NCBI GenBank assembly: GCA_032718475.1
Contig: JAUCBJ010007962.1
Span: forward strand, 1-64,000
Origin: Nemertoderma westbladi
Lineage: Eukaryota > Animalia > Xenacoelomorpha
Reading direction: 5' to 3'
Length of the DNA: 64,000 nucleotides
Positions 1 through 49,179 of this stretch are shown one piece after another. The position numbers and the translations under genes were made by a program. The notes below the pieces were generated by a model. The model made no database searches and was not told the DNA's origin. It worked only from the letters and a program-made list of their open reading frames with translations. Every line of letters starts with the position of its first letter. The stretch's first letter is position 1.

Positions 1-1845
1 GCCCATATATTTTGAATTCTTCCATTTTGTATAGTATGTAGCCCTACCTATGTAATTTTGTATTAGGATATAAGTAGATAGTTCCAGGGTAGCAAGTTCC
101 TGTTGGACCCTGGATGTGGGCTTGCTGTTATTAGCCTTGATGGGCTAGCTATTGGTTTTAATTTTCTCTATAATTGCGCTAAATTAACTTTTGAGCATCG
201 TATTAATAGTACCGCTAAATTAAGCACCGGCAAAATTACCTTATATGGTGACGATTTGAGGGTTTCGGGAGCAATAGGTTCACGATCCGGCTTTCTTATT
301 GGCCTAACTGCTTCCAGGTTGGTCTAATGATAGCTCGGATTGGGGAGCCAATGAGAGAGCGATTGCATCATCCCTCATGAACCACCTATAAATTGGCCGT
401 GTTTCTGGTAAATGTAATCATCTTTGTTGTACACTATGTGCTTTGTAATTAATCTCAGTGCTTTCTTTATAATTCTGCATTTCTACCTCTTTTCGATTTT
501 TTCTTACGATGATTCGCTAATTTGACTATTTCTGCTTGTGTTTCTCAATCAACCTCAATGATTACTATAAATTACAATTGGAACTATGATTTCTACCCTT
601 TAGTAAATGGTTCTATGTGATTCTTTTCGACACAATAATCCTACGGGATTCCTTAGACTGTCAGACTGTTTGGTAATTTGAATGCGCCACTATGGTAGCT
701 ATTCATTCTGATGGAGAGCTAAGTTACCGGTAAGTGCGGCGGGCGCATCGGGGGGTTAGCGACGAAGGGAGTGCGGAGGATTCAAGGGCGGGCAGTGCTG
801 GCGAGAGCACTATTGCGGCTAGAAGTTCGTGGTATAGGAACCCAGGTTCGCCGGTACGGTAACTAGGGGGCTGATAATCCAGATTTTGTCTCTATTTGTA
901 GTATTAGATTAGGGGCAGGAATTGGGTTAGTTAGGAAGCTCCAGATGTATCCGGGAGAGACCTGCGTGCCTTACAATCGTGAGCTAAACTGTAAACTATT
1001 GTTTGTTGAATCGTGAGCTAAACTGTAAACTATTGTTTGTTGAAACGTGAGCTAAACTGTAAACTATTGCTTGTTACGCTGATTGGTGTGTTACTAAAGT
1101 GTGCCTAATAAATCACGAATGCTTAGATAGGTGCTCTTTTCCCTTTGATTGATTTCTATTTCTTAGTTTATGACGAATAGTTACTGATTAGGTCGAAAAA
1201 TAATACAGTATTTTAGGCTGTTACTGGTGCTACCAGTTGTGCGATAAATTAGAATTGCGCATTCTGGAATACTTAGTAATTAGTACGCTGTACATATTTG
1301 TGACTGTAATTAACTAGTAAAATTAAGAATTTTGTACGCAGTATAGCGGAGAGTAGTTAAGGTAGGATTTGGAGTACCGTAACTATTGATTACTTAAATA
1401 TTCTCACATTCACACATTCCGTTAGGGAACCCCAGTCTTTGCGATTAGATGCGATTAGATTAGATTAGAAAAGACGTAATTGTTCACGTGTTTAGCAGTA
1501 AATTAGGCTGTAGGAATACACTCAGAGTGCAAGTCTCTCGCACTCGTTTTAAGTAGCTTAGGGAGCCGATTTTGGGTTTATTGTTTTGGTTATTCCCACA
1601 TGGCTCATATATTCGAACAGTTAGCTCTCTATCGAGTAATTGGTAGAGAAAGGAACAAGAAATTAGCAGGAGCCGTATAAAATTAGTAAATATATTAGCG
1701 AACGGCAGATTAGCGCCATCCAACGGTAAGTAGCGGTTTTGGATTTAGCAACCCTACATTACAAATAATACGCTCCTGATTGCCCTGCTTAATAAATAGA
1801 GCAATTTGTGTCTTCATTGGTTGGGTCGGGGTAGTTTGTTTAACA
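1..1845 (+). repeat. 5' LTR of element A (partial)
   Basis: Near-identical to 30416-32452; identity ends at ...GTTTAACA (1845). CCAAT ~348, TATA-like CTATAAA ~386, AATAAA at 1107 and ~1792. Confidence 0.95.
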
Positions 1846-1856
1846 GTAAGGCACGC
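1846..1856 (+). promoter_or_regulatory. Putative self-priming primer-binding site of element A
   Basis: GTAAGGCACGC directly after the LTR is the exact reverse complement of GCGTGCCTTAC at 964-974; no TGG tRNA PBS. Confidence 0.6.
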
Positions 1857-3140
1857 GATATTTACTGTTACTTCGTAACAGTAAGGCACGTTTTGTCTGC
1901 TGTAGGCCTACAGCATACAGTAAGACACAGAGTGTATTCTGAGTTAGATCACTGTATTATTTGCCGTTACCTCATAACAGTAAGGTACATTGTTTTGCTA
2001 CAGCGCACAGTAAGACAGAGAGTGTATCCTTAGGCTGTTAAGTAGGATCACTGTACTGCGTACAGTGAAGGCACGTGATTCGCTGTTGCTTGCAACAGCA
2101 TAGAGTGTTTATTAGGCTGTTAAGTTAGATTACTGTCGCATCATTAGTCGCATACAGTAGTACAGTAGTGCATTAGGCTGATTGCTGTACTGCGTACAGT
2201 AGAAAAGACATTTGTTTCACTGTACCGCACACAGTATTCATTAGGCCGTTAGGTTAGTGTACTGTTTTACTTATTGTACTGCGCACAGTGGATGTACGGT
2301 TGTGTGTTTACTAATCGCAAATACAGCAGTTCATTAGGCCGTTAGGGCAAGTTGTAAGTTTTGAAAATTTTAGCTAGGTTTGTGAGAATTCAGTTTTGGT
2401 CAAAATTATTTAGTGATAAAATCTTAGAGTTTTGTACCGGTATGTTGGATAACCGCTTAGTTATTTTATACCATCTGGAGATACATGGCAAGATGGAACT
2501 TCTGAGTTTGGGGTTCGTGTGGGTCTGCGGGTTCGGTTTGCAATCAGCGAAGTGCCTGAACCTTTGGATGCGGACGTGGAATCTCACAGCAAACAAGGTT
2601 GGTTGTTCTGTTGGCACCATTGTGTTTGTGGAAGCAGTAAAAAATTACCGGTTGTTTAACTGCGAAGCTGAACTCAATTTATTAGTTAGGTTAGTTAGGT
2701 TTAGCCGGCCATGGTTTTTGAATTGCTCGAGTTAGAGAGAGAGTTAGAGAGAGTCGCAACCCGAAGATGTAGCCACGCGCTAGTGGATACATATAATATT
2801 TGAAATTAAAATTGCGTTAATTAGAGCTATATGTGTAGAGTTAGAAATATTTGGGTGGCAAGTTCATTTTGAATATTTTGTATTAGATTCAAAATTATTT
2901 TGTGTCATACCGGTATTTAAATGCTATATAATAGCTATAGAATAATATTTTTGTTTAAATATTGTACTGGTATTTGCTATAACCATATCCTATTAAATTC
3001 ACAATATTGCATTGTGAATTTATTTTGACATTTTGGACCAACAAATTATTTGACAATTAATTTAATCGTATTTTCGATTAAATTATATATATCTCGAATT
3101 TTTGCGAGATTTAGCCGGAAGGCAAAACATTATTTAGACT

Positions 3141-5428
3141 ATGAGTGTCTCAGACAAAGAGGCACTAGAGGACAGCTATGAGACAGCGGCTGGACCGCCG
3201 ACCGACGATAGCACTAGCATTACTGTTGACGACAATGCCGACTATGACGACGCAGCGAGTGACGCTGACGTAAGTGAACAGGAGGACGAGACAGTAACTA
3301 GTGAGGAAGAGCAACCAGTATAAGTAATAGTATTAGGATCCCCTACCACTACTGTAAGGAAGGATTGTACAGCAGCCCGACCAGAGGTGAGTGATAGGGA
3401 GGGTAGTGTAGCAGAAGTGAGAGCCCGGAGCCCGGTTTCCAGACCTGTGGGTATGGTAAGTGCCGTGGTCCCAGCGGCTATAAGGAGTACCCGTAGTTCC
3501 CGAAATAATCCTTCAACTCCACCAAGTGTAAGTCAGGTAAGCGAGAGAGAATTAGACATCGCGATAAAGAAGAAACTTCGCGCGCATGCCGGACATATAA
3601 CTCAGACGGCGGATAAGGTAAGGAAGATGCTAGCCGACTCAGGTAACATCGGAAGGGAAGGGTTAGTAGAGATTAGAAAGGGATACAACTCAGCGTTATT
3701 CAAGCAGACGGAGGAGCTTGCTGTCCTAGCGAAAAGAGCAGTGGAGTCTCAGTCGAGCGACGTGGCAACGAGGGTTTATGATAGGATTTTAGCAGCCTTG
3801 TTAGAGCACCGCGCGTTATCGGAGCGATTTCGACGAGTTAGGACGGAGAACTGGTTGCTATGGGCATCACAAGTGCAGGCGACTCAGGTGAGTGATGCAG
3901 AGTCGAGAAACTTAGTGGAGCATGAAGAGACGCAGGATAAAGAAGAGCGCCGGTATCAGAGGGAAGTTACTAGCTGGCTGATGCAGAGTGGAGTGGTGGT
4001 ACCAGGCCAGGTGCTACCGACGACGGAGAACATCCAACAGAGGACGTTAACTCCACCCGATAGCGCATCCAGAGACAGTGGCGATTCCCAGGTTAGTCAC
4101 GCGCGAGGGAAGGTTATATGTGCTAGATCCCTCGTTTCTCACAACTCGGCGGAGGAGAGAAGACACCGACTGGACGAACAGCAGGCGGAAGTTTTGCGTG
4201 CATCGGAAGCACGGAAGGAAGCCGAGGGGGAACGGGAGCGCACACGTAAGTTAGACGCAAAGTTGCGAGAGTTGGAAGACAAAGGTAAGCGTGCGCATGC
4301 GGAACGCGAACGGAAGGAACGCGAACTCCAACTAGAACGCGAACGGAAGGAATGCGAACTCCAACTAGAACGCGAACGGAAGGAACGCGAACTCCAACTA
4401 GAACGCGAACAGAAGGAACGCGAACTCCAACTAGAACGCGAACAGAAAGAACGCGAACTCGAACTTGAACGCGAACGCAAGGAACGCGAACTCAAGATCG
4501 AGAAGGAGCGACAGAGTATAAAGCGAAGGCGCGACTGGAAGAAGAGAGCGCAGCGAGACGAGCGAGGGAAGAAGAAGAACGTAAACTGGCACAGTTAGAA
4601 AGTGCGAGATTACATTTAGAGAGCGAAGAACGGACCAGGAAGGTGAATGAAATCGCCGAGAAGGGGATGCGAATGATCGAAGAATGTGGGGCGAGTGTAG
4701 GTACTGAGTTGCAAGAACTGTTCGCACTGCAGAAGGCCGAACAGGAAGCGAGAACTCCGACTATACGCGAGTCAACGACGACCAGAATTCCTATACCTGG
4801 TCCAGCTATTACGAGTACACGGATCGCTAAACAGTTCTCTACATATCGCACGCCGGTTGGTATTAGTGCTTCACCCATCGCTCAGGATCCACATCATCAG
4901 AACACCGTACCACTACATACAGAACGAGACGAAGAAGTGTTTAGAGAAACTCCGACGGGCCGAGTATTGGGCGAACTGAACCCGCGGGTTTGGAATACGC
5001 GGACGGAGCGCCGACCCAGTTCGACGGAGAACTTCCGGGTTAAACCGGAAGAGGGATTATATGAGAGACAGCGGATTACTCAGATAGAGCCGACTATACA
5101 ACAGAACCCTAGCCAGGAATTTATTACGAGGGATGAGTTAAGTGCTAGTTTAGCGCAAGCTATATCGCCGCACATCCAACCTATAACGGACATGCTTAGT
5201 AACCTACGGTTAAAGGAAGCAGCCCAGGTAAGAAGTAATTCTAATCCTAGCAGGCCTGAGTCAGATAAAGTCCAACCTAGTCAACGAGTACGTATATCGG
5301 AGGCAACTATACCACATAGACCTCAGGTAAGGATGCCTGTCCCGAATATCCATAATCCCGATTTCGAAAATTCGGCGGAAATATTTATACAAGAAGCATG
5401 GGTGCCTAAGGAGGTGAGTTCTCTATAA
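3141..5428 (+). pseudogene. gag: Element A gag, N-terminal part (acidic N-terminus, 11-aa coiled-coil repeats); stops and frameshifts
   Basis: ORFs 3141-3323 and 3387-4598 share a frame across one TAA; continues in 4643-5428; ERERKERELQL repeats. Confidence 0.8.
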
Positions 5429-5429
5429 G

Positions 5430-6634
5430 TGTGCCCAAAACAGGTGGCGGCGGACTCGTGAGGGTCTGGGGACACGTTAAATCCAAATGCTTCTTGTATA
5501 GTGCAAGGGAGATACTGAAGGCCCTCGTGTCTGACGAACCATGAATCGACATGGTGCCGTGGTACCGTCTAGTCGGCCTGTTGCCGTACTGCCAGTCCTG
5601 TACACAGTAGGGGTGGTGGCATGGCGTGATTTGTGGTTCATGTGGTGTGAACTGTGATTTGTATGTGGGCGACCAGTGGCAGTTAGCTTTGGGGCTTGGA
5701 TGTGTGCCATTGACCGTCAGCTGTTCCGCTTTTTGATACTATATGTTATTATCTCCATGTTCAGCTGATTGGTCTTTGGAGTGTGTTTAGGTCTGAGATG
5801 AGCTTTCTGTTGCTGTGGGTATGTGAGTACACGTGATTGTATGTATGGCCACTGCGAGTGAGTATGGGAACCCTTGCCAGTTGGTCCAGACGCCGCTGGT
5901 ATTAGTAGGACCATATCTTTACTGCGCCCCAGCATACTTTGTGCACACAGGTTATTTTACCCTGACGGTAAAATAAAGTACTCTCGACTATCTCTTTCGC
6001 GATGTCTCTAGTCGATACAACTATTCCCTCTCAATTTTGTCTTTCCCGATTTTGACCCCGATTTTGTCTTTCCCGATTATGTCATCTGTGTGTGCATGGT
6101 ATGTGTCCGATTTTGTGTTTACCGTTGTGTACTTGATATTGTGAACATCTGTTGAGTACACGTGTACAGCGACTGGTAAGTGGTTACTTGTTCCTAGCTT
6201 TCAAGCTAGTCAGTATTGTTTGCGGAACTTATTTCCCTTCAATACTGCCGGCGAGGCGGGTGAAAACGTGTCAATATTCCATGTTGGGTAGCGCAAGCCC
6301 GCTTGGGACAAGACCGTCGGTTAGGCCCAAGGGCGACCTTGGTGCTTGATCGCTATCGACTGGTCCACCCGCCGGTTGACTCTCTGAGTTGGCTCAATGT
6401 ACAGTCAGGCCACAGTAAGTTGACAGTAGCCGCCCATCTGGCTACACATTCGACGAGCTGTGCCGGTGTGATCGGGGGACCGAAAACAGAACCCGGGAAG
6501 CATCGGGCCACCCTCCGGCCCGGTCTGATAATAACATCAGTCAGACTGGCCCCAGGGGTGGTGGAAAGGTGTCCGCCTCGTGGGTGCGCCTCCGGGAGGA
6601 GCCCAGAAGGACACAAGTGCAGGGCCTCGGCACA
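5430..6634 (+). mobile_element. Solo-LTR-like insertion in gag of A
   Basis: Ends TGTGCC...GGCACA, AATAAA at 5972, non-coding; gag resumes right after it. No clean TSD seen. Confidence 0.6.
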
Positions 6635-7221
6635 CAAACCAACGCGAGCGCTAAGGACTGACACAGACTCAAGTGATGAAGAGGAAGAAATGAGACGTCA
6701 GAAGTCCCGAAACTATAAGGAAAGAATGACCGACGCGGAGCAGGTAAGTTCAAATCCCCGGGAAAGGATCAGACTTAATAACCCTGCGGAACTAAACCAT
6801 TTGTTAACCCGGAACGACGCAACCCTTAGGGACATAGGTAAGTTTGCTGCTAGGCAAGGACTGCCGACGCAACAACCCCAGAAGTTTATGGGCAACCATA
6901 AACATTGGAGAACTTTCAAAACCTATGTCGACGAACAGCTAACCAACAGCACCTTTACTCCCAATGAGAAGTTCAACTATTTGCTTCAAATGCTCCATCG
7001 AGAACCTAGAGCCATTGCTGACAACTTCGTTGGCAATGAAAGAGCATTCGAGTTGGCAATGAAGACGCTTAGCGACATCTACGGGAATAAAACCAAGATG
7101 GCATAGTGGAAGACTTGGGTAAGGGCGGAAGGATTACAACTCCGTTAGAGCTGTTGAACTTAGCAAACGCGATTTCGAACGCATTAGACATCTTGAGGAC
7201 GGTGAATCTACCTCATCATGG
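6635..7221 (+). pseudogene. gag: Element A gag, capsid-like DUF1759-type segment
   Basis: KFMGNHKHWRTFKTYVDEQL...EKFNYLLQML...AMKTLSDIYG resembles the BEL/Pao gag core. Confidence 0.8.
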
Positions 7222-8461
7222 TGTAAAAGCTTCTGTGGGATATAACTGGCCCCTTTGCTTCGCAATCCAGTTTCCCCCCAGGCGCTGGAATACTCTAAAA
7301 GGTTCTCTAACTGTATATATATTCCCCTCGCCCGCAAGGTACCATTACAGGTATTTTAACAGACATAAAAGTCATTCTTCTATATACGTGCTTTGGCGGA
7401 CATGGTAAGGCAAAAAACCCGCAATGCACCAAATGCCTTTACACGGCTTGGCCTTGATGATTCAGATTGCGACATCTAGCAGCTGGTTGCTGGCATGGAA
7501 ACAGCCATTGGACGCATGGTTCTTTGTTTGGCTTGAGCCAATCAGAGCGATTTCTTCTGTCGACGTGTAGATATTCGGCCGATGATACTAGAAGTGTTCA
7601 GTCTTACTGTTTTTGTGATACTGTTGTGTTCCTTCTATCTAGGCCAGGAACACCGGCTCTAGAGTCAATTCGTTTCAGACTTTAGAAGAAACATTAGTAG
7701 GCTTAAGATTATAGAGCGTATAACTGTTATCAGTGCAACACGGCACATACATTGTCATATCATATCTTAACCTACCGTCTTAATGCTGTTTACTGTTGTG
7801 TTTTGATTGAATATTATTTGGAGAACATTTATAAAGAACCCAAATTTCCCAATTTTCTTGATACACTACAGGTTAGAGAGACGGGTTATATATAGCGATT
7901 GCGACTTATATTATTGTGGTTTGTAGTGAATTTAATGCTATTTGATAAGCACTACATGAGTCCGTTGCTGTTCTCTTTATATATGATAAAATTCATTGAC
8001 GGTCGGCAAATTAGTGAGCAGTATTGTGTTTTACCGGTAGTGTGCATGATTGTGACTGATAACTAAGCATTTTCTAAAGAATGCGCCTCATACGTGAATC
8101 ATAAGCCTTACCGACTTGCCGTTGTGATTAGTATAAGTCATATCTCTGTTTACCTAGATAGAGCGCCACGTCCTAAAGGAACTGTTAATATTTCCCGAAA
8201 GTGAATAATATTAGTCAGAAATTATTTATTAACGATCAATCGAATAATACAATAGGCTTACACTGCAATAATAATCTAAGCCCTCAGAATCCAGTCTCCC
8301 GGGTATATCCAGCGGGTGAATGGACGCGCACTAGGCTGGCTTCTGCTATTGTTGTGTTTATTGGTATTAAATATTTGTCAACTTCTAAAGTCTATTTATA
8401 AACCAAAAGACATATAAATTTTGGCAGGTTAAACTGCTAAAGGTCTTCAAAAGCGCGTACA
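7222..8461 (+). repeat. 5' LTR of element B
   Basis: TGTAAAAG...GCGTACA; about 10 substitutions versus the 3' LTR by manual comparison. Confidence 0.97.
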
Positions 8462-8472
8462 ATAACAGTTAT
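8462..8472 (+). promoter_or_regulatory. Putative self-priming primer-binding site of element B
   Basis: ATAACAGTTAT is the exact reverse complement of ATAACTGTTAT at 7720-7730; no TGG. Confidence 0.55.
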
Positions 8473-8519
8473 TGTCTTTATTGCAGTAAGCAATAAAGTT
8501 GAAAGTACCGGTCGACCGG

Positions 8520-8660
8520 TAAACCTGAACCGGTACTTCTGTAGGTCAGTAGGCCCAACTGCCAGAACCGGTACTGCCGTAGGTCCGTAGGTCCAACTGC
8601 CAGAACCGGTACTTCTGTAGGTCCGTAGGCCCAACTGTCCTAACCGGTACTTCCAGTATA
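8520..8660 (+). repeat. ~37-bp tandem repeat in the leader of B
   Basis: AACCGGTACTTCTGTAGGTCCGTAGGCCCAACTGCCAG-like unit, 3-4 copies. Confidence 0.85.
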
Positions 8661-8882
8661 AGTACATTAGTATTATTCGATTTTGATTATTGTATACCGG
8701 TAGGTCTTAGTATTTAATCAGGGACTGCAGCCCTGGTTCTTTATTGAGATTTTACCTATTTCTGTCGGTTTTATTTACATGTAAGTTAATATTGAGCTGA
8801 AGACGTGTAAGTCTGCTCAGATTGTTCAGATAATTGTAGGCCGGACTGTTGTTAGATTGTTGTTGGGTTTGGAGAGATTACG

Positions 8883-9350
8883 GCGTGTGTAGAGTTTGTC
8901 CGATAGAGTGCCAGTTAGTAAGTTGGGGCAGCCATAGCTGTAAGGTCAATCCCCTCTTAAAGAATAAGTCGTACTACCGTGTTAGAACGCATACTAACTA
9001 ACCATTTTGGAATCTGCACATACTGTAGTTTATTTAGGCTTGACAGTATTCTGCCAACGTTTTGGCCTGTGTTTGTTTGTGTGGTCTGTTCAGGTACCGT
9101 AATAGTTATTACTCAGATATTTTGTAGGCTGGATTGTTGTCTAGCTATTATTAGGTCTGAAGAGATTGCTGCGTGTGTAGAGTTTGTCCGATAGAGTGCC
9201 AGTTAGTAAGTTGGGGCAGCCATAGCTGTAAGGTCAATCCCCTCTTAAAGAATAAGTCGTACTACCGTGTTAGAACGCATACTAACTAACCATTTTGGAA
9301 TCTACACATACTGTAGTTTATTTAGGCTTGGTGGTAGTCTGCCAGCGTTT
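8883..9350 (+). repeat. Direct duplication (~288-bp period) in the leader of B
   Basis: GCGTGTGTAGAGTTTGTCCGATAGAGTGCC... starts at ~8883 and ~9171. Confidence 0.9.
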
Positions 9351-10698
9351 GGTTTGTATTTTGTTTGAGTATTCTGTACGGGTAGCGTAATATTTATTAT
9401 TCAGAGTTTATGCGATTATTCGCAACATTCATGTCCCCAAGTTTATTCCTACAGTAATTGTGTTTGTTACACATACCGTTATAGTTAAATTAACCCCGGT
9501 ACTACACGAGCTGCTTGGCGTAGGAAAAGACTGGTGACTTTGTGCTTCGGTCACTCCAGCAGATGCCGTGGTTCTTTTAACTGTTCAAGTATATTTAACT
9601 ACTGATTATTTGTTGTACCAGTACTTGTACCTAATTTAGGGTTTAGTGTACAGTGCTTTCCGAGGTAATTAGTGTGTAGGCAGTATATTTGTGTTGTAAA
9701 GTGGTTAATAGGCACGCTGGATCTGGTAGTCCGCGGTAATTAACTTCTAGGTAGGAACACTCCGTGATACATAACGTAGTACCTATAGCGATACGGTTAT
9801 AGGTCGTCAGGCGGTGGTATTTTCCTATCTGGACAACGCAGTGTATTTACTACTACTTATTATTTTCAAATACCGTAGTACCCTGTCCGTTGTAATAACC
9901 AGAATTCTAACCCTTTGTTAGGCTGGTTTGTAGACTTCCTGTAAAATTACCCTAAAATTTCGTACGTAATATTTTTGTTGTGTTTAATTAGAGATTTAAT
10001 CTCACCCGTATCGTAAGTAATTTGTAGTATTAAGTAACTTAGGTAAATTAGAATTATCTGTTTTAGTGTCCCATAGGTAGCACTTCACTGAGAGCGCACA
10101 GCTTCTGTGTAGTGACTCCCCCAGAAATAATAACATTATTATTTCAAATATTGACAAAACCCCTTTTAAACGGGTATATATCTATTATAAATCAACTCAA
10201 ACGATTTATAAATAGTAGGCCTGCCATACAACAACTAGGTCTCAAAATCAGTTGGACTACTGCTTAAATAACGGTAACAAAGTAAGTTAAAGTAACCAAG
10301 TAACCCTAAAATATTCAGAAATTCAATTATTCTAAATTAATTGACATACCGGTATTTACCATAGGCTTCTTATATTTATTTCTATAAATTTGAGCTGAAA
10401 TCATACCGGTACTCTGTAATTAATTCTAGTCCATAATTATACTTATATATACTATCAGTGTAAGCTGTATACCGGTATTCACGATAGGCCTATTATATAT
10501 TTATATATATTTGTGCTAAAATTAGATACCGGTACTCTGTGACAAACCTAGTTTACAATACTTATATATACTATAAGTGTATACCGGTATTCTAATATAC
10601 TGTAATAAATTAACGGTACTAGGCCAACGGTCATACTGAATTACTAGACTTGCTTTAACTGAAACTATAGCAGTAGACATTCAACTGTATAGCTAAAC

Positions 10699-13600
10699 AT
10701 GTCTGACACTCAGCAAAACCTGTCAGACAGTCTAATCGATACAACCATCTGTGACACAGATAGGAGTGTGGAGCGATTAAGAAAGGAGTTCAGCTCACCT
10801 CCTACTGAAAGAAAGGTCATCCCTCCAGTAGTAGTATCAGACCCTAAGCTAATCCAACACCGTAGGTCTATCATCGGCACTCGGGCCCAAGTCAAACGGA
10901 ACCAGGAAGCAGCTGTCCCACAGCAGCAACAGCCTAGTCAAGAAACTTGTTCCCAGCGATCCGATAGCTCCAGTAGTTCGGATACTGTCGAGCTGACCCC
11001 CGAACGCGGATTGCAGATGGCGGCTACAGCCTACTCGGATCCCCTTCTCACCCTTCCTGCCGCAGTGCTAACTACTATATTGATTGCGGTGGAGGAACAT
11101 CAAGCTGATTGGGCGAGAAGTAAGCGAGCGACCCAAGATAATTATGCGGGATACGCCAGGGAAGAATTGATGTCTATTGTCGAGTCACAATGGAACTTTC
11201 CCGGACCCGGACTCCCGTTAGATTTGTCCGAGGCTACTTGGGAGGATATATACAGGATGGGAGTGACTAAAGATACAATGGACCCAGCTGTTTGGAAGAG
11301 GTCGGCAGCAGGATATGTGCAGGGATTCTTCGGCTCCTTGGAGCAATTGGAAGAACAACTGTTTCGACAACCCCTAGGACCTCAAGAGCAGGAAGAGCTG
11401 CTATATCAAGTACGCGAAAGAACCCTGCGCATTAGACTAATCCTATCAGCCTTTGAGGAAACTTCCAAAAGAAGACAGGACACGTCGCTGCAGGTTGCTG
11501 TCAAAACTTGGTTCCAGCGGGTAGGTCTCAAAGTACAAGAAACGGACCAGTGGAAATCCCAGCTGTCTGAGAGACTAACCTATGAAGAACCAACCGATGC
11601 CACCCTTTCTCAAGTGGAAGGCGAAGAGACCGCAGAGAGACCACGAACGAGAGACGCCATCGACATATATCTGTCCGACTATCAGCGATTCCTAGGAGAC
11701 GAAGAGTTGAGGAGACGGCTGTCTGGACTTTCCCCTAATAGTGAAGGAACCCAGCGTGTGTTAGACTCAATCGATGCTGAAATGTTAGCTGCTAACCAAG
11801 CTGAGTTTGATGAAAAACTCCGCCTCACTAGAGTCCAAGAAGAACTAGTAAAGAAAAAAAGGATAGAGGACCGAAAGGCAGCTGCAGTAACAGCGGCAAT
11901 GGCCGAAGTGGAAGCAGAAAGAAAGGCAGCGGCGGCAGAAGTAGAAGCAGAAAGAAAGGCAGCGGCGGCAGAAGTAGAAGCAGAAAGAAAGGCAGCGGCG
12001 GCAGAAGCAGAAGCAGAAAGAAAGGCAGCGGCGGCAGAAGCCGAAGCAGAAAGAAAAGCGACTGTGGCAGCAGCAAAGGCAGTGGCAGAAGCAGAACAGA
12101 GGGCGTCTGAAGAGACCACACAACTGGAGTTGGAAAATCTTCAAGAGACGCAAGATTGCATAAATAAACAGTTAACTGCTAGTCAAATGCAGATGAGGAG
12201 TCGATCTACTCCCAAACGCCAGGGATACACCTCATCAGAGGAAAGCGAAACCACCGATCCTGAAGGCGGAGGAAATAGATCTCGTCTAAGCAGGCGTAGA
12301 AAAACATCTCACCATCACAAATTGCCTGATTTGCCCCCAGCGGTTAGAAGACAACTAGCTAGCCCAGACTTAGGTAGTATAGAACCTACAGACCAAATTA
12401 TTAAGGTCAAAAGACTCCCTACAATAGTCGATGAGCCTGAAATAATTGGGCCTGTCGTTCCCAAAGCCACTACTGTGCTAGAGACCCCTGTACTTCCAGA
12501 GCTTAACTCTAAATTCCCTTTACACAGGACTACACTGCCTGTACCCGGTAGAACAGTCCATGAGAATATCCCTGTCCTGGAAGCTGAGAGAGAAATCAAA
12601 GATTTGTCTCCCGTCGTCCCGCGTCAGCCCGCTACAATGTTGGCGACTCCCGCTTCGGCGGTCGAGTGGGTAGAGGAGGGACGGCGGGGGATGAATCTCC
12701 TGCTCGGACAGATGCAGGAGACTGTCCACCAGCTTAAGGGAACAGTAAGGGAAGGTAGGGCAGAATTGCAAGAAGTGCAGCAAAGTATCGCACTGGAACG
12801 CGACAAATTAGTCAATATACAAAAGGGCATACCAATACCCCCTGTAACATTGTGTCAACCTGTTAGGTCTGAAGTATTACATGCGCAAGGTGTGGAGCCT
12901 ACATGCATCTATACTGCTAGTGAAGTGGAAACTCCTATAGCAAACCCTATTAAGGGTGATTATAGACCTGTTGTTAATGATATTCCCTATAGACCTGATA
13001 ATGATCCGAGAAATTTATATACCGATAATTCGATATTAAATAACACGATGGCCCAAGAAAGCTTTACGCGTCAGATGGCTAGAACAGAAGCCCGCCAAGC
13101 GGTCAAAGTGGGAGAGATCGTCAAATTCAATGGAGATGAGATGAAATGGTTACCTTTCAACGAATATTACAAAGACAGCATACAGAACTCTGTGCTATCT
13201 AACGGAGAGAAACTTAGGTTCCTCATCAAGTGCTTGGAAGGACCTCCCAAGTTAATGGCGTTAAAGTTTATTGGACATCCAGAAGGATTATGACAAGTTT
13301 GGGATACATTAAACATCAGGTATGGTAACAAGGATAACATAGCTAAGTATTTGTATGCAAAATTAGTAGCCCCCCGAAACTTCCTTAGTAGCGGTATTAT
13401 AGAGTTTTCCGATGAGATTCAGGAGATCTGTAGACAATTGGACTGGTTAGGTAAGTCTCATGAATATCAGAGTTCCATGGTTATTGGAGCAGTAGTCTCT
13501 ACTTTACCAAAGGGTGGAGTATGTACACGTTGGGACAAGAAAGTGTTGTATATGAATGAGCAGCAACGACGAAGCCCTACCATGGCTGATCTCATGTCCT

Positions 13601-15390
13601 TCTTAGATAGTGAAGTAAAATTACAACTCATAAAGCAGTCCAGAGAGAAAACATCGGAAAATAAGGTAAGTGAGAAACCCGTTTCTAGGAGAAGGATAAT
13701 ACCAGTGTGTTATACTGACGACGGCGAAAGCCAAGCTTCTCAAGAAGAGGACAGCGGGAAAGACACAGCAAAATCTTACTATGACAACAAGACCTATAAA
13801 GACGTAAGTAAATACAAGTCTCGAACCAGTGACAGGAGAGAACAGGTAACAACAACTCCTCCTACGTCTCCTAAGAGAATTTACGGAAGAAAGCCCGAAG
13901 AAAGAACGAGAGTGCATAACGTTACCCAAGGTAAGGTGAGTAACATCAAACCAAAATGTGCGCTGTGCGACGGGCCCCACCGTTTGAGTGCGTGTGCTGA
14001 ATTTCTGAAGAAATCCCTTGTAGACAGACGTACAGTCCTGTGGAATAAGCGGTTATGCTATAATTGCCTCAGATCAGGACACCAACGGCGAACCTGTTAC
14101 TCCGACGTAAAGTGTGCAAAGTGTGGCGCGAAACATCACATCTTGTTACACAGTGAGTTCGAACGAAACAACCCGAGTCAGGTAAGTGAGCCCGAACTAC
14201 ATGTCCAATTCAGTGATGTAAATGACACTGATCAAGAGTCTGAGATGGAAGGATTCTATACTGACGAATTCTCCGACGCCAACGAATCCTGTTACCTAAT
14301 AAATACCTCAGTGTATCGAGCACTTACTTATGAAAAGGACACCGACAATGAGTTCCCCCCAACTACTTTTGCCAGACAACCATCTTGGAAAGCTCCAACT
14401 TCCAATGTAGGAATCAGAGAATTTCCTGTAGTGCAGGTAAGAGTTCATGGTCCTAACAAAAGTTACATAGTGAACGCCCTCCTTGACTCCGGCAGCACAG
14501 GAAAATTCATCGATCAAGAACTAGCCGAAGATATCTTTGCTGGACAACCCAAATTCCGGACTAAATTGAATATGTCAGGAATTATGCAGGTTTGGAAATC
14601 TACCCTAACGGCAGACTACTATGTAGGTGTGTTGTCCACCCCCCAGGATAAATTAGGAGCACAAGGTATAAGGTCGGTAAAAATGGTGGCTATAAAGAAC
14701 TTCGCTACTACCCAAGCAGACCTTTATAATTGGGACGAGGATGAGAGCATCCAACATCTTAAGATACCTCGATTCCAGACAGATTATCCTGGAGTGCAAA
14801 TACTCATCGGCCAAAACGCGCATGAGGCGCTCGAGACATTGGAGAAACGGCCTACTCAACCGCAGCCACTACAAACCTATGCGGTAAGAACTAGAGTAGG
14901 TTGGTACTTCACTGGCCCTTCCCGTAGAACTCTCAAAGAGAGATTACCTCAACAACAGGTATACCAAGTAAAGGAATGGGAAGTGGAGAGCAGTGATGTG
15001 GACGATCCAACTGAGGGAACACCATACTCCTCAGATAATGACGATATTAACTCCAATGTAGATCAATGGAGACATTGTCTTGGGACGATTAATCCAGCCG
15101 ACATCGCTTCCAGAGGAGCAACTCCTCAAGAACTGATAGATAATCCAGGCTGGTTAGGTGGATCCTACTTCTTAAGTAAAGAAGAAGGAGAATGGCCTCC
15201 TCATCTTACCCCGGTGAAGATTAGACAGGCCAAGGGAGCGGAGAAAGTAACACAACAACTAAATCGCCCAGCTAGTCGTTTATGTTTACTGGAAAGAGAC
15301 CGAAAACTGTCCGGAAACTATGGAAGGCAAGATACTCTTCCTACGACCACTTCCCTAATCCGACAAATATCTAGGGACTCCATAACGTAA
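10699..15390 (+). pseudogene. gag-pol: Element B gag-protease fused in frame to RNase H tail and integrase C-terminal remnants; one in-frame TGA at 13291-13293
   Basis: DUF1759-like KFNGDEMKWLPF; three knuckles CALCDGPHRLSAC, CYNCLRSGHQRRTC, CAKCGAKHHILLH; protease ALLDSGS; QWRHCLGTINPADIASRG; NRPASRLCLLE; no YxDD and no DDE. Confidence 0.9.
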
Positions 15391-17021
15391 TAACATATGG
15401 AGTGGGCGTGTGACTATATCATTTTATATTTGTTTTTATTTTATATTTATGTATGTATTATTATGTAATTTTATTATAATCGTTTCCTTTAATTTTATTT
15501 AGTAGAATGTTATTTTAGTGATTATTTAGTAAATTAGTGCAATATATTAGTGTTTATTACGTACGTAATTACTTATAATATATATTTAGTGCGACGGCGA
15601 GAAAATAATTATTTTTCTATTTCCTTACTGTCCGTATCATATTATAAATAGGTGACTACAGTAAGATGAAATGTCCGTACTTATTAAAGTACAATAAAGC
15701 CACTACTATATTCAAGTATTATTGGTAGGCAGAGTATTAGGAATGCAAAGTTCAGATCCTCGTGTCTCGGCTAAACCAAGCTCTAGGTAGACCTTGGAAA
15801 CGACTTGCCTCTTCACACTGACATTGCTTCGTGCGATATTGCTCTTCTACCTTATATTAAATAATACATATAGTAGCGTGATGTCCCTATAACAGTAGCG
15901 TAAAACGCAAATAAATCTGTTAAACTTTTTGACCATCTGTAATTCTAGTCGATTAAGATATCGTGGCACCCACCGATATACTTGAAAGACAAATTCTAGA
16001 ATCAGTGGTTAACGTCCCCAGACAAGTTCTGGAATAAATCGGTGCCTATCTTAAATATTAATTTAATATTTATTAAAATCTGTAAAATTCAGATCCTTTA
16101 AAATTTCTAGTCAATTAAGATATCGCAGCACTTACCGATACTCTTAAAAGACAATTTTCATAGAATTAAGGATCCTATGTCCCCAGACCTGCTCTGGAAT
16201 CAAATTGTGTCAATTTTAACATCAAATAATAAAATTCACGGGAATAAATTTAAATTCATATTTTAAATGAATTTCATAAATTGTCATTTTGTGCAATTTA
16301 TAACATTCCCAAAATTCCATTAATTAATAGATCATGGGAGCGGAGATTCATCCTATTGAGTGTATTAGAGTGCGAGAATCTCCAACATATAGTCAATAGC
16401 CGATAAAATTAATAAAATCATGCATAAAGAGGATATTGACAATTAAAGAATTATTATTAAATAGCATCCCAGATCTGTATGCATGAGAATTACCCTAATT
16501 CTACCGCTAGCATTCCATAATGTCACCATAGCAACACCCACGCTAGAATCAGAAGCAAGTTAAGAGAACAATAGAAAGCTTGTCCCATTGCATAGCATAG
16601 AGAATACATAGCACACTGTTAGTATCCAAGGATACACAGTAATAACGTGACATTCTGGAATGCACTGACTAACGGACAAATGGCCTGTATGTGTACAATT
16701 GGTGACAGTTGTGTGGAATTTGTGCGTTTATAGGTGAATGTTACTGCTAAAGTATGTTTACAGTAGCTAGTCGCAATTGTGAAAGTAGCCCAACTCTCCT
16801 ATAGAAAGAACCTCAAGTGGATTCAAGCCTTTGGGACGGACAGTGGAGTGACTTGTGCCGGTTATCGTTGTCGTGCTGTTGCTACATGTTGGCGTAAATA
16901 CCGCGACGACAGTACATCGGCGCTGAGAATCCCACTGTCCGGGGGCAAAGAGAGGTAGGCAGCGACGCCCGCTCGCCTAAACATAAACTCATTACAATAT
17001 TAATAAACTCAGATAGCAGAT

Positions 17022-18470
17022 ATGACGGAGTTGATAGAAGATGATCTTGGTATCAGGGAGCGATATACTCTACCTTTACAAGCATTTGTGGATAGCTTGA
17101 TACGCGATGAAGCCGATCCAACCATTACGGAGGACGATGGTCGTTATATCGAACCGCCGATGTCCCAAGAGCAACTTACGCGTGAATTGGACTATCGAAA
17201 ATTCACCGCTCGCTATACGCATCGTAATGGTACATATATGGACTTCCTAACTACCGGCCATCCTATCGATTTACATGATACGGACGATGTAGACACCGAA
17301 AGGGAAATGGTTCTATTTAAATATCATACCCAGCGGAGTCGTAACGATAAACCGAAAATAGATCACGAAAATTCTATTCGTAACAGACTGGGAAGACGAA
17401 CCAATATGCCTAGAATCTGAGGAGATTCAGCCTATCGCGCCCGGAACAGCGACAACGATTACATCCTAGAATGGTATCAAGGTCCACAGTGTCTCACTGC
17501 GTACGATTATCGCCATGCCAACTATGTTTCTCGGCAACGTTGTCGGTTATGCGCATCGAGAGACCATGTTACGCCCATGGACACAAACGTCCGCTGTTCC
17601 TATTTCCACGAACAACCGGCGATGGAAATTTATTGCGCGTATTGCAGACTCAATAACTTGCACATTTTTGCGGTTTGCCCTCAATTTATGACTCAATGGC
17701 ACCATGGTCAACTAAAGGGACGCGCCAGTTTCGATTGCCCTTTTTAATCACGATTTGGAAAGCGTAGATGAAATGATCACACTACGTTACATCAGAGCTT
17801 GGGAAGCGAACGCTGATTTACATTGTGATTCGCGCCATCGTTATTATCCTGGACGCGCTTACGAAGGAGTTTATGCGTTCCATCCTTATCTATTCGCTTC
17901 TGTCGAACAGAAATCACGCATATCGAGTTACGAACTACTGAAGTGCGTCGGAGAATGTATTTCAACCAAGTTCGTACGCAAATTCTCAGGAGTGTTAATC
18001 CCAGCGACCTTCATTCCTATAGCTTAATCAATTATATCCGTCAGGACCCGGACTATGGAGACTTATTTGTTAACTCACACCCCGAGTTACAGGAAGTATA
18101 TCGACGGCCTTATGAATACCGAGCCTGCGAACGCGAGTTGGAAAGAACCATTAAACCCCGGAGGTTTCTAACTGCCTATGGTCCACCCACGGCTCTCGTT
18201 CAGACCACTCGTAAAGGACCCGTAAGAGCGGCTGTCTTGAAACGAGCTCTCAAAGCCGTTAGACCCCTCTCCCCCGACGTTGATGTCAATCAACCCGGTA
18301 CTTCGACTGGCGGATACACCGACCATAATCCTACACCCTCTGATGCAATCATATTGCACCCTTCACCCAGGAGTTATAGCCCTCCTTGTAAAGTGGCTCG
18401 CCCCAAAGAGAAAAGGACTCTGGCTAGCTTTAAAAAACTGCGTAAACGCCGTCCGCGCAAGAAAGACTAA
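17022..18470 (+). pseudogene. Extra 3' ORF of element B (triple Zn knuckle, WExxADxH domain, basic C-terminus), disrupted
   Basis: Reading through TGA at 17418-17420 gives CRLCASRDH..., CAYCRLNNLHIFAVC and a degenerate third knuckle; after a frameshift, RAWEANADLHCDSRHRYYPGRAYEGVYAFHP; ends KKLRKRRPRKKD. Confidence 0.75.
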
Positions 18471-18540
18471 CTGTTTAGAGTATTTACGTATATTAGAAAC
18501 TGTGATTTTGTATATTTTATAGACTCAAATCCCATTTTCT

Positions 18541-18548
18541 GGGAGCGG
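18541..18548 (+). promoter_or_regulatory. Polypurine tract of element B
   Basis: GGGAGCGG directly before the 3' LTR TGT. Confidence 0.8.
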
Positions 18549-19788
18549 TGTAAAAGCTTCTGTGGGATATAACTGGCCCCTTTGCTTCGCAATCCAGTTT
18601 CTCCCCAGGCGCTGGAATACTCTAAAAGGTTCTCTAACTGTATATATATTCCCCTCGCCCGCAAGGTACCATTACAGGTATTTTAACGGACATAAAAGTC
18701 ATTCTTCTATATACGTGCTTTGGCGGACATGGTAAGGCAAAAAACCCGCAATGCACCAAATGCCTTTACACGGCTTGGCCTTGATGATTCAGATTGCGAC
18801 ATCTAGCAGCTGGTTGCTGGCATGGAAACAGCCATTGGACGCATGGTTCTTTGTTTGGCTTGAGCCAATCAGAGCGATTTCTTCTGTCGACGTGTAGATA
18901 TTCGGCCGATGATACTAGGAGTGTTCAGTCTTACTGTTTTTGTGATACTGTTGTGTTCCTTCTATCTAGGCCAGGAACACCGGCTCTAGAGTCAATTCGT
19001 TTCAGACTTTAGAAGAAACATTAGTAGGCTTAAGATTATAGAGCATATAACTGTTATCAGTGCAACACGGCACATACATTGTCATATCATATCTTAACCT
19101 ACCGTCTTAATGCTGTTTACTGTTGTGTTTTGATTGAATATTATTTGGAGAACATTTATAAAGAACCCAAATTTCCCAATTTTCTTGATACACTACAGGT
19201 TAGAGAGATGGGTTATATATAGCGATTGCGACTTATATTATTGTGGTTTGTAGTGAATTTAATGCTATTTGATAAGCACTACATGAGTCCGTTGCTGTTC
19301 TCTTTATATATGATAAAATTCATTGACGGTCGGCAAATTAGTGAGCAGTATTATGTTTTACCGGTAGTGTGCATGATTGTGACTGATAACTAAGCATTTT
19401 CTAAAGAATGCGCCTCATACGTGAATCATAAGCCTTACCGACTTGCCGTTGTGATTAGTATAAGTCATATCTCTGTTTACCTAGATAGAGCGCCACGTCC
19501 TAAAGGAACTGTTAATATTTCCCGAAAGTGAATAATATTAGTCAGAAATTATTTATTAACGATCAATCGAATAATACAATAGGCTTACACTGCAATAATA
19601 ATCTAAGCCCTCAGAATCCAGTCTCCCGGGTATATCCAGCAGGTGAATGGACGCGCACTAGGCTGGCTTCTGCTAATGTTGTGTTTATTGGTATTAAATA
19701 TTTGTCAACTTCTAAAGTCTATTTATAAACCAAAAGACATATAAATTTTGGCATGTTAAACTGCTAAAGGTCTTCAAAAGCGCATACA
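18549..19788 (+). repeat. 3' LTR of element B
   Basis: Copy of 7222-8461, followed by TSD CATGG. Confidence 0.97.
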
Positions 19789-19793
19789 CATGG

Positions 19794-22700
19794 TGATCAC
19801 GCCGAAGTTTTGAAAAGCGTAATAAGACGTTTAAACATGCGTTACCGACAGAAATGGCGCAAATTAGAGAATAAGTTGGAAGGTCAAGGTAAAGTATTGA
19901 CACTTCAACACATTCATGACATGATAGCCATAGACGCATTAGCAGAGATGAAGTCAAACTTCTCAGAGGAGAATATGAGGGAGTCTAAGCCTGTTACTGG
20001 TAAGTCAATGGTAAGTTTTGACGATGACAGGACCACTGTGACTTTTAACTCAGTAGACAGATATGATTCGAGTACCCCAGCCTTTAGATCAGACTCGCGA
20101 GTATGGTCAGGTGAGCGGTTAGATAGACCTAGGTTAAAGCAACAGGAGTTGCCGGATGGATTTGTAGGTTGCCAATTCTGCTTGCTAAAAGAGGTAAGAT
20201 CTGATGACAATAAGTTGGACAGTTGCAGACGGTTTCAAAGAATTAAATTCGGAACAGAGAAGAGTTCAAGTGCGGACGTTGGACACCTGTTGGGCATGTC
20301 TTGCGCCAGGCCATGTACGGCGGCAGTGCCCGAACAGCAAGGATGGATGCATGGAATGCGGCAGACTACATCACAAGTTGCTACATGCGGATTTCCATAC
20401 CCCAACGGACCGTTACTTACAGAGAAATCCTCAAAGGAAGGGGAGCAAAGAACCCGTATCGATAAGAAGAAATACGTATACTGGCATCCAGGACGATGGT
20501 TATCAACCAGGTTCGTCGGACGAGGATGGCGAGGCGAGCGCGAGAGAAGTGACCTGCCAAGGTTTCACCGCGGATAGTTCATCGACCAGCGCACGGACGT
20601 ATTTATCATCGGCCACGTCGGAAATATTTAGCATGATTCCGGTGAAACTTACTGGGGATAAGGGATCGAAGAGAATATATGTGATGTTGGACACTGCGTC
20701 CACATTATCATATATCGACGAGGAAGTGGCGAGAGCCGTTTCTAGCTTCCAGGACGCCGAGGAAATCCAAATAGAGTTAAACTCCATGCACGGGGTAGGG
20801 GACCTCAAGGGACACAGAATTTCGGTAGAACTAGATTCCCTACTTCCGAGAGACCAACATACTCGACAAGAACGGAGAGCTTTGCCATTAGATGGATTCA
20901 AGTGTCTAGCTATGAAGGGGTTCGGCAGGCAGTTAGGTAAGGTGCCGCCGATGAGTCCCATAGCACAGGAGTATTTTGACAAGCTCAAAGTACCGAGACA
21001 CCAGGTAGGTTATAGGAATGTTTCTATGTTGATTGGTGCAGAACAGCTGATCGCACACCAAATATGGGAAACGAGACCAGCTGAGCCGCATGTCAATGGA
21101 CCACATGCCTATAGGACTATATTAGGTTGGTATACAAGAGTACCCATGTCTTATGAGTTTACAGGTGGCGACAAGCCAATAGATAGATAGGACGGATTAC
21201 AGCCTATAACTGAACCACCGTTAGTAGAACCACCAGACATAGACGAGTTTAGGAGAACCTGTATTGACCATTATAGTGACGTTAGCGAGTCGGACGAGGA
21301 GTTGATTCCCGATAATGTTAGGTTGTCGGAACCACTTCATAACGACCGGACAGATAGTGAACCCGAGGACTACTGTTATCAGACCCGTGGGTCTGGTTCA
21401 GCGGCCCACGCTACCTATTTGAGTAACATTTTGACTTATACCGACATAGTGGAGGGTCAAGTGGCTAAATATCGAGACCTCGACATTTTCCAATACAGTG
21501 AGGAGGAATTGCAGAAGGAATTGATACGCCAGGACCTCGAGACAGGAGCTAGAACCGTCGAAAGGCTGGATAGGGACGCAATGGAACCCGGTGGGTATGA
21601 CCTAACCATGTCCACTGATGAGAAACGGTCGCTGGAGATGATGGAAGATACCATACGTCTGCTACCGACAGGACATTTTGAAGTTGGAATGTTGTGGCGT
21701 CGACAACCACCTAAGTTGGAGAACAACTACAGCTTAGCCTTGAAAAGATTGGACGGAGTAAGGGCTCGGTTGTTAAGGAATCCAGACATTAGGGAGAAGT
21801 GTTGCGCCCAGATCAACAACTATTTCGCCAAGGGATTTGCTGGGAAGGTAGAGGACCCTGACTTAGTGACAGACCAGACATATTACCTCCCACACCACTA
21901 TATGACTCACCCTGACAAACCTGATAAAGTCCGAGTGGTCAACGACTGCGCAGCAGTTTACAGAGGTATGTCCCTGAATTCAGAGTTGATGGATGGACCC
22001 AACCTGAATAACTATTTGATCGGAATACTGTTACGTTTTAGACAGCGGCGATTCGCGTTTACTTGCGACATCGAGGCGATGTTCCACCAGGTAAGAGCCT
22101 GTAAGGCAGACCAGGATAGCCTTCGATTTCTCTGGTTCGAGAATGAAGACTTATCCGGCCCGGTGGTTACATACCAGATGTACGTTAGGATATTTGGTGC
22201 CCGCGATAGTCCGAATGGCACGCTGTTTGTTCTAAAGAAAACGGCAACAGCCCAGATTGGTAAGTATCCAGTAGAGGTGATCGAGTCTATATTGAGAAAC
22301 TTCTATATGGACGACGGATTGGTGTCCAAGGACACGGCAGAACAAGCCATAGAAGTGGCTCACGGCCTACAGGAGTGCTTGGCTACAGGGGGTTTTCCTC
22401 TAACCAAGTTCACTACAAACTCGGAGGCTCTATTAGAGTCGTTCCCGGTGAAAGATCACGGGAGCGGAGACATAGAATTGGGGGTAGAACCCATCCCCAT
22501 GGCGCGAGTACTGGGACTCGCTTGGAACCCGAACACGGACAAGTTCCAGGTAAGAGTTAGATTTGAGCCCAGTAGTCCAGACAAAGTTTTGACAAAGAGA
22601 ATTTGCTTATCGACATTAAGTAGACTATTTGACCCGATGAACTTTATCAGTCCGGTAATATTACAGGCACGAGCGTGCATGAGGAAAATTTGGTTGTCCG

Positions 22701-25271: not shown

Positions 25272-26025
25272 TGTTGGACGCAACTCACTTCGTATGCATT
25301 CCTCGTATGCAAATACAAGGAAATGCATAGGAGCGGGTTTGTGGTGATTTGCGTTGAGTTTTGTCTGGTGGGTATCAAAAACAAAATTTTATTTTCAAAA
25401 GTTTTGGAAAATTAAAAAATTTTCAAAAATTAGAAATGAACCCAAGACAATTCCAGACGCTGTGTATAGACGCGTTTTGAATTCGTCTATAGATATACAG
25501 TAATTTGAAAAGTCGTGAAGCCTGGAAAATAGCATTTAGAAACCATGGTGACGGCTATATTACGTAGGAGTGTAAATTGAGTTTAGCAACTTCTACAGAT
25601 TGGTGCCAACAGTACAACTAGGGTGCTAAAGGTTAGTAGCATCAGAGGCGTACACGACCCCACTCAGTAGTTTGCAGTGAAGTGTGATGTTCGATATCAA
25701 ACCTGTGGGTTTGGTATAGTCGAGCATTGAGACTATTGTCCTTTCTAACTACTGTAGTTTATTACGAGTAATGGGAGTAGTTTGGGCATCAAAAAAGTGA
25801 GTTGGTCACGGCCAGTTTATCTCCAAACTTTTGCGCTATGCATGGGAATAGGTTAGAGGATAGTTAGGAAGAGACGGGATCTAGAGAGTCGAACCTGAAC
25901 TGCTGGAAGGCGGGGGGGTTCGGGAGGTCTGTCCTTCGGCGGCATCTAACTGATTTATCCGCAGTGTAATTAGTTACGTAACGGAACACTTATTGGGATA
26001 TATATATGTGTATACGCAGATTATA

Positions 26026-29000: not shown

Positions 29001-29710
29001 GGGCAGTAGACCCATCACACGTTGCGTATGAGCCGTATCTGCAGTCGTTACCACAATATCAAGAGCTCATCCTGACCGCTCAAGACCTTCCACAGAACAC
29101 TGGAGTCATCGTTGTTCGGGAATACTTCAGACAATTGAACATGGATAACAAATACACTTGGAACTTTGTTGCTATTTGCAACCGTATTACAAAGGGTGTA
29201 TTTTCGGAAACTAGAAAGGTGGTGCGCGCGAGAGGAGATTGGAGGATGGCGGCTATACAATACCGCAACGAGTTCCTATTGACTCACGTACCGGTGGGGT
29301 CATTGACCGCTAAGAGGATCGAGGAACAGAGAACCGCAGCGCCCACAGCGACGACTGTTGGAGCTCAAAGCTCACGGAAGGAACCAGGAGGAGAGGTCCA
29401 AGACAAGCGTCAAGTCAAGGACGACCACTACCATTCGATTATAGAAGCACAGGGAGCGTTGGAGAAGGCGCGGGTGCAACTGCAGAAGGAGGAGTTGGCG
29501 GAAGCGACCACAGGAGCACGATTGGGACGAGGCCGAGGGAGAAGTACGAGCCGGGAATCTGTCGGGGCTCAGGGAACATCGTCACCGGTTCCAGGGAGTG
29601 ACGCCTCGCGGACAACATCAACAGAGTCGACTACTGGAGGAAGATTGGTGTATCTGGGAAGGGGGCGGAAGAGAGGAGCGAGCCCAAAGAACCCAGGAGC
29701 GGGTCGGTAA
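26026..29710 (+). pseudogene. Large extra 3' ORF of element A (~1200 codons; triple CCHC knuckle, WExxADxH domain, RG-rich tail), disrupted in the 5' third
   Basis: ORF pieces 25993-26856 and 26950-27255 (same frame) plus 27395-29710; CKLCSSTRHNQKLC, CRWCNETDHSFHTC, CGYCGVKGHRSARC, KWEGVADYH...GYGFWAVDP. Confidence 0.8.
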
Positions 29711-43270: not shown

Positions 43271-43354
43271 TCTTTAGTCTCTATTTCTGGTCGGTGGCAG
43301 TCAGTTAGAGTTTGGGTATTTTATCGCTTAGGGCAACTACTCGGATCTTAACAC

Positions 43355-49145: not shown

Positions 49146-49179
49146 ATGTCAATACATTTTTCAATATAACCGCAGAATG

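Follow-up and report, generated by a model that had tools for sequence, protein, structure and literature searches.

The window analyzed here is a stretch of 64,000 nucleotides from a Nemertoderma westbladi contig (JAUCBJ010007962.1, positions 1 to 64,000 of the forward strand), and it holds three BEL elements, designated A, B, and C. The 5′ LTR of element A, on the forward strand, occupies 1 to 1845; it starts ~184 bp before the window, ends in TTAACA, and is 98.5% identical to 30416 to 32452. The 3′ LTR (30233 to 32452, 2,220 bp, TGTTA..TAACA) is preceded by a purine tract, and the LTR pair shows 27 differences over 1,842 aligned positions. Relative to the 5′ copy, the 3′ LTR has ~149 bp of extra sequence and one more unit of a 34-bp repeat at 31836 to 31984. 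The 5′ part of the gag region (3141 to 7221, forward strand) contains stops and frameshifts and has DUF1759 at its end, whereas the remainder of gag-pol (19794 to 25250, forward strand) carries RT, RNase H, and integrase, with further in-frame stops and frameshifts. These lesions in gag-pol make this copy of A defective, so that it would depend on proteins supplied in trans; the acidic motifs of RNase H were located in its translation. Pfam returned PF05380 (E = 1.3e-36), the DUF1759 gag domain, and the integrase H2C2 domain in that order, with a PR-RT-RH-IN order between the LTRs, in agreement with the original assignment of A to BEL/Pao. The closest listed protein relatives are 36 to 42% identical, with BEL proteins of marine animals at 38 to 42%, and those named belong to cnidarians, echinoderms, molluscs, a nemertean, a hemichordate, and a tunicate. 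No chromodomain was matched among the 18 frames scanned, and A falls outside the Ty3/gypsy chromoviruses (Tf1/sushi). The element spans >32 kb with C and ~20 kb without it. Extra sense-strand ORFs (pieces of 300 and 780 aa) lie between its pol and 3′ LTR at 25954 to 29710; neither gave a Pfam match, and the longer one has Cys/His knuckle-like repeats as judged by eye.

Element C (7222 to 19788, forward strand) lies inside the gag of A; the original prediction mentions neither this insertion nor the defects of A. It is bounded by LTRs at 7222 to 8461 and 18549 to 19788 (1,240 bp, with 10 of 1,240 positions differing) and a CATGG target duplication, and it contains a gag with DUF1759 and a protease-like motif. 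Pfam gave no RT match in C, and an ORF region near 17000 to 18470 has no assigned identity. The third BEL element in the window, B (~36170 to 43911), is on the reverse strand. Its putative 5′ LTR (43355 to 43911, reverse strand) has an end that is not fixed independently of pairing, and no second LTR was found within the window. Element A seems to be located within the 3′ region of B. A tandem duplication (32231 to 33888 and 34237 to 35866), either real or an assembly artifact, takes in the last ~220 bp of the A 3′ LTR plus flank. Satellite-like arrays with units of ~456 bp and 15 to 17 bp (57300 to 64000 and 48270 to 49160) and LINE-like fragments (46100 to 55300) were also seen.

The primer-binding-site (PBS) position of A is complementary to its own LTR. 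The 11 nt at 1846 to 1856 (GTAAGGCACGC) are, as the original prediction had it, the exact reverse complement of LTR positions 964 to 974 (GCGTGCCTTAC), the candidate 3′ end of a self-primer, both read on the forward strand. The match ends at 11 nt, a 12th pair being possible via G-U wobble in the duplex fold, and there is zero gap between the site and the LTR end. That end is set independently of the pairing, as the two LTR copies agree through TTAACA and diverge after 1845 and 32452, respectively. Within the window the 11-mer occurs at 964 and in the second LTR (31378 to 31388), and reversed at 1846 only, plus a 10/11 copy at 1881 to 1891. The chance expectation of 5e-4 given earlier for such a match is fair: an 11-mer at offset 0 arose in 1 of 5,000 dinucleotide shuffles of the A LTR and at any offset from 0 to 4 in 8 of 5,000, while an 11-nt match to the LTR is found at 4 of 5,340 internal positions of A. 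A tRNA PBS of the TGG type is likewise absent from A. The first TGG downstream of the LTR is at 2289, i.e., there is none for 443 nt and hence no site for a tRNA CCA end. Near the LTR ends of A and C, no alternative primer site was found. No element-encoded tRNA-like primer was found either, since the complement of the A site occurs in the two LTRs only. Rfam over 1 to 33000 gave nothing at gathering level and no tRNA-like RNA (one U12 match had E = 0.34), and ARAGORN found 0 tRNA genes in the 64-kb window and in the 44 scanned loci of the 79 relatives described below.

Signals around the pairing segment were identified by motif. Both AATAAA signals expected downstream of 974 are present on the forward strand, a first candidate polyadenylation signal at 1107 to 1112 and a likely one at 1791 to 1796, with a GU-rich tract next to it. 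Three TATA-like boxes lie at 387, 566, and 1676, and the distance of ~550 nt from the start to the pairing segment given in the original prediction is not confirmed. A predicted GT-AG intron at 730 to 901 (forward strand; motifs only, with donor CCG/GTAAGT at 730 and a pyrimidine-rich acceptor at 901) ends 62 nt upstream of the primer segment. The TATA box at 1676 sits 50 nt upstream of a splice donor (1676 to 1731), near the LTR end. Together these could give a primer-less mRNA, by analogy with the downstream start of Tf2, which yields such an mRNA (excerpts of PMC5341516).

The nested element C has the same geometry as A with other letters. Its PBS position (8462 to 8472, forward strand) has zero gap to the LTR end and no TGG for 272 nt (the first is at 8734), and it is the exact reverse complement of 7720 to 7730 (ATAACTGTTAT, forward strand), the candidate self-primer 3′ end in its own LTR. 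This 11-nt match at offset 0 was reproduced in 4 of 5,000 shuffles, and the site is a near-palindrome. Judged on motifs only, A and C share the order TATA-like box, GT-AG intron (730 to 901 and 7405 to 7642), primer segment, poly(A) signal, LTR end, and site, with the primer segment 62 to 77 nt past the intron acceptor. An extension of the match across a splice junction was tested in A and C and none was found. In B, 9 nt after the putative LTR pair with 43558 to 43566, as 9 contiguous nt or as 13 pairs with a bulge.

Analysis of relatives showed that the site and the LTR vary together. A scan of metagenome contigs, covering 16 of 64 parts, yielded at least 538 confirmed relatives, the best 80 of which reduced to 79 loci; IMG/VR gave 77 pattern matches, none confirmed as a BEL relative. 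In nine loci both LTR 3′ ends are present, which fixes the LTR end independently of pairing. Left out of this fixed-end set were L038, in which the repeat overshoots the end, loci whose repeat stops at the contig end, and L055 and L066, in which the repeat pair is not the LTR adjoining gag. Seven of the nine have an own-LTR match of 11 to 15 nt that starts 0 to 4 nt after the LTR end. The match is direct in L005 and L041; in L003, L004, L007, L020, and L034 it exists only across a predicted GT-AG intron, a pattern indicative of RNA-level pairing. Sites of TGG type characterize the remaining pair, L031 and L071, whose own-LTR match is only 4 nt; the L071 site resembles the tRNA-Met site quoted in excerpts of PMC5445492. 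In an 11 × 11 matrix of A, C, and the nine relatives, the own-LTR match was 11 to 15 nt in 9 of 11 elements and 4 nt in the two of TGG type, compared to a maximum of 9 nt in all 110 cross-pairings (0 of 110 reached 10 nt). A matrix of 10 elements, built under stricter splice rules, agreed with this picture. Every one of the 11 fixed-end elements has a TGG site or a self-match, never both. The original prediction had named co-variation of the post-LTR sequence with a reverse complement in the same LTR as a test of self-priming, and the nested C and the relatives pass it.

Less constrained sets of loci were scored as well. First, among eight further loci in which only the LTR start is fixed, strict acceptor rules gave matches of at least 11 nt in 4 of 8, compared to 3 of 56 cross-locus controls. 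With an acceptor rule relaxed after the strict result and the sequences had been seen, 8 of 8 reached at least 10 nt, all across introns, compared to 3 of 56 controls; L036 shares its family with L034 and does not count independently. Second, when 65 of the 79 loci were scanned without constraint (14 were left out as duplicates or for too little upstream DNA), the result was much less clean, with at least 11 nt in 29 of 65 loci compared to 39 of 195 controls.

Some further trends were apparent among the relatives. LTR introns of 76 to 186 nt whose predicted exon junction is complementary to the post-LTR site are found in L003, L004, L007, L020, and L034 and likewise in L026, L028, L029, L036, L046, L049, L054, and L067. 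An intron of this kind could survive reverse transcription only if splicing spared the 3′ LTR copy in the RNA. In 16 of 17 candidate primers (974, 7730, and 15 loci), the last two bases are A and a pyrimidine (AC or AT), possibly a preference in cleavage or initiation. In relatives having a TATA-like box, the primer segment lies 31 to 150 nt from the likeliest one, compared to several hundred nucleotides in A and C. Finally, in an RT tree (FastTree, 81 rows, without outgroup or named references), A and B were joined on long branches, and the two TGG-type loci clustered with a support of 97; L019, of TGG type by eye, fell beside them.

RNA folding gave different pictures for the two elements. 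The A duplex has a predicted energy of −19.2 kcal/mol and belongs to the minimum-energy structure of 7 of 10 transcript windows, including 5 of 5 that reach 2000; depending on the window, its mean pair probability varies between 0.08 and 0.94, in folds made without a shuffle control. The C duplex is weak, at −10.1 kcal/mol, and none of 4 long folds contains it; these folds likewise had no such control. The A leader has many alternative hairpins and five copies of the junction motif. A local fold predicts an 11-bp leader hairpin (1861 to 1885, forward strand) holding part of a second copy (1876 to 1890) of the LTR-end/PBS junction 15-mer, and this hairpin, by tying up the second copy, may leave the true site free. 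A Tf1-style U5-side flanking duplex has no counterpart of at least 7 nt in A or C. Leader-side flanking matches of 9 to 10 nt occur in A and C at a level not above background, and no clear three-duplex "pretzel" results.

The A family is abundant and diverse in the DNA reads of four runs. One contig, from run X3, joins 1848 to 965 on the opposite strand, the only such case among the nine joints listed in 700 to 2100. In the duplex, 972 is the partner of 1848 and 965 that of 1855. Of the 48 letters of this contig past 1848 (42 + 6), 42 lie on the other side, consistent with a copy in which the LTR end continues into ~924 to 974 in inverted form. The joint was seen in one of the four runs and is absent from X1, which is from the same sample as X3. 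Copying of a long primer, a DNA fold-back, or a library chimera would each give such a contig, so that at most it shows that the two segments meet; Tf1 cDNA often keeps a copy of its PBS (excerpts of PMC11042837). Contigs covering 1807 to 1855 carry one or two more differences than contigs ending at 1845. By counting, the extra differences fall in 1846 to 1855, which means that the commoner A copies probably have a variant site. The listed junction contigs cover 1845/1846 without formally bridging it, none having 31 letters on both sides.

The arrangement in A resembles that of Tf1, in which an 11-nt duplex cut by RNase H provides the primer (excerpts of PMC7175516, PMC4600332, PMC10085805, and PMC5341516). 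Like A, Tf1 and Tf2 of Schizosaccharomyces pombe, Tj1, and Tosmo1-3, all of the Tf1/sushi group, have an 11-nt PBS directly after the 5′ LTR and complementary to the element's own LTR, and no tRNA site (excerpts of PMC7175516, PMC4600332, and PMC10085805). The Tf1 PBS starts with ATAAC, as does the site of C (excerpts of PMC11042837). The differences are as follows. First, the Tf1 group are Ty3/gypsy chromoviruses, whereas A has the proteins of BEL/Pao, another superfamily. Second, the first 11 nt of the RNA serve as primer in Tf1, whereas the primer in A, C, and several relatives appears internal on motif evidence. Third, Tf1 forms the three-duplex structure that is not clear in A or C, and in many relatives the primer spans an intron. 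A published criterion defines a putative self-primer as a complement of at least 10 bp located 0 to 5 bp after the LTR (excerpts of PMC6317226), and A has such an own-LTR complement (≥10 nt, within 0 to 5 nt of the 5′ LTR). The same criterion predicted self-priming in plant Tcn1 (gypsy) and TAR/Houba/Osr-1 (copia), which belong to superfamilies other than BEL/Pao and for which the available excerpts of PMC6317226 do not mention splice-junction primers. Fungal GalEa copia elements lack a tRNA site and have a near-palindromic motif at the PBS position, as does C; the partner sequence there is a nearby hairpin arm and, unlike the own-LTR match of A and C, no U5 complement was found by the authors (excerpts of PMC5445492).

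According to the ICTV profile of the Belpaoviridae (Semotivirus), the PBS is 18 nt long and serves tRNA-Arg or tRNA-Gly, the LTRs measure 0.2 to 1.2 kb, and the genomes 4.2 to 10 kb; the profile describes replication as tRNA primed and "poorly understood" (PMC8742986). Element A shares with it the gag-PR-RT-RH-IN order, the LTRs, the polypurine tract, and the Pao peptidase and DUF1759 domains but differs in lacking a tRNA-type site and in having LTRs of 2.2 kb, a length of ~20 kb when C is discounted, and the extra 3′ ORFs (PMC8742986). The TG..CA LTRs and polypurine tract of the BEL/Pao criterion are present in A, and the 18-nt tRNA-complementary PBS is absent. We keep A in BEL/Pao on its proteins and read the family description as incomplete, because 7 of 9 relatives likewise lack a tRNA-type PBS. 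No paper on BEL self-priming was found in the literature searched, which contains few subscription papers or Repbase reports. By term look-up, the BEL surveys PMC3118150, PMC6238403, and PMC8556966 do not mention PBS, tRNA, or priming, and PMC554778 mentions PCR primers only; the available parts of PMC8220671, PMC13524379, and PMC3601003 contain nothing on BEL priming.

For A, we consider it likely, on the sequence features above, that the minus strand is primed without tRNA by the element's own LTR RNA in a Tf1-like manner, probably with an internal rather than a 5′-terminal primer. The pairing, the zero gap, the exclusion of TGG sites, and the co-variation across the lineage are observations on A's group, from which we infer the transcription start, splicing, the cut, the enzyme, and the priming itself. 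Transcription would start upstream of 964, at the TATA-like box at 387 or 566, and the predicted intron at 730 to 901 would be removed. Positions 964 to 974 would then anneal to 1846 to 1856, and a cut after 974, for which the element's own RNase H is the likeliest enzyme by analogy with Tf1, would free a 3′-OH. Reverse transcriptase would copy 1845 back to 975, and the product would jump to the 3′ R region, with the stretch from 975 to the poly(A) site serving as the strand-transfer overlap. Plus-strand synthesis copying the attached primer would rewrite the PBS and keep both segments matched through drift. Such rewriting would explain both the co-variation and the matches to spliced junctions. 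The scheme is also favored by the presence of the A duplex in most transcript windows folded and by the X3 contig, whose joint is close to the duplex register. Against this scheme, the good TATA box at 1676 together with the AATAAA at 1791, if it were the sole start, would put 964 to 974 in U3. Also against it are the weakness of the C duplex and its absence from long folds, the window-dependent pair probability of A, the lack of a Tf1-like U5 duplex, the apparent site differences in commoner copies of A, the match of only 9 contiguous nt in B, and the less clean unconstrained scan.

The pairing could instead be a selected RNA structure serving packaging, dimerization, translation, or splicing control, with the minus strand primed by another agent. 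This is the best of the alternatives, although we judge it unlikely. Co-variation demonstrates pairing rather than priming, the A leader is rich in alternative hairpins and junction-motif repeats, the C site is near-palindromic, and the conserved hairpin of GalEa copia at the PBS position is of obscure action (excerpts of PMC5445492). However, the pairing is always 0 to 4 nt from the LTR end, 10 to 15 nt long, and in place of a TGG site, and neither A nor C has another primer site near the LTR end. Less probable is the binding of a host tRNA half or fragment by the site. CCTTAC, with which the primer of A ends, resembles the tRNA-Val(TAC) anticodon loop, Val or Ile anticodons are recognizable in most primer ends, and the shared A-plus-pyrimidine end (16 of 17 self-matches) would suit such a primer. 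Half-tRNA priming does exist in copia lineages (excerpts of PMC6317226). It would leave unexplained why pairing is specific to the own LTR (0 of 110 cross-pairings reached 10 nt) and why exon-exon junctions are matched; moreover, the bases upstream of the shared end differ between all families, and Rfam gave no tRNA-like RNA in 1 to 33000. A DNA-level fold-back or template switch during reverse transcription, by which a bit of the LTR was copied as a by-product and not as a primer, is highly improbable: the inverted-joint contig of run X3 could arise in this way or as a library chimera, but a fold-back is unable to yield matches to spliced junctions and leaves the elements without any primer site. 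Chance complementarity has a negligible probability and is effectively refuted by the matrix, since, even with a 2.2-kb LTR and many features scanned for the original prediction, the match arose in 1 (A) and 4 (C) of 5,000 shuffles and is present in 7 of 9 fixed-end relatives.

Self-priming by LTR RNA may extend beyond A. The signature is real and lineage-wide, and it probably works as in Tf1, outside the Tf1/sushi group, with a primer that is internal and often built by splicing. We suggest tentatively, at slightly less than an even chance, that self-priming is the usual mode in a large marine branch of BEL/Pao and that it departs from Tf1 in its primer, which would consist of the 3′ terminus of a long 5′ fragment that is capped, spliced, and cut from mid-R. 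Splicing would build the pairing end in many families, so that host splicing and start choice would gate replication; in A and C the intron would lie wholly upstream of the primer.

If self-priming is true, BEL/Pao would be a third LTR superfamily with tRNA-independent priming, here by an internal and often splice-built primer. This would bear on whether self-priming is ancestral or arose repeatedly, a self-priming precursor having been raised in excerpts of PMC3601003. It would also mean that annotation filters requiring a tRNA PBS discard such elements, and perhaps that the elements escape silencing by 3′ tRNA fragments. It would further define an exact position for the cut (974/975) and an RNA-DNA junction, both open to test.

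A separate observation concerns the splice-donor-like motif GTAAG, which was counted on the sense and antisense strands. The counts were 14 versus 0 in the A gag (3141 to 7106), 9 versus 3 in C (10693 to 15390), and 14 versus 5 in the A pol (19790 to 25250), compared to 7 versus 10 in 46000 to 64000. This sense-strand bias may reflect protection of a very long RNA against early polyadenylation.
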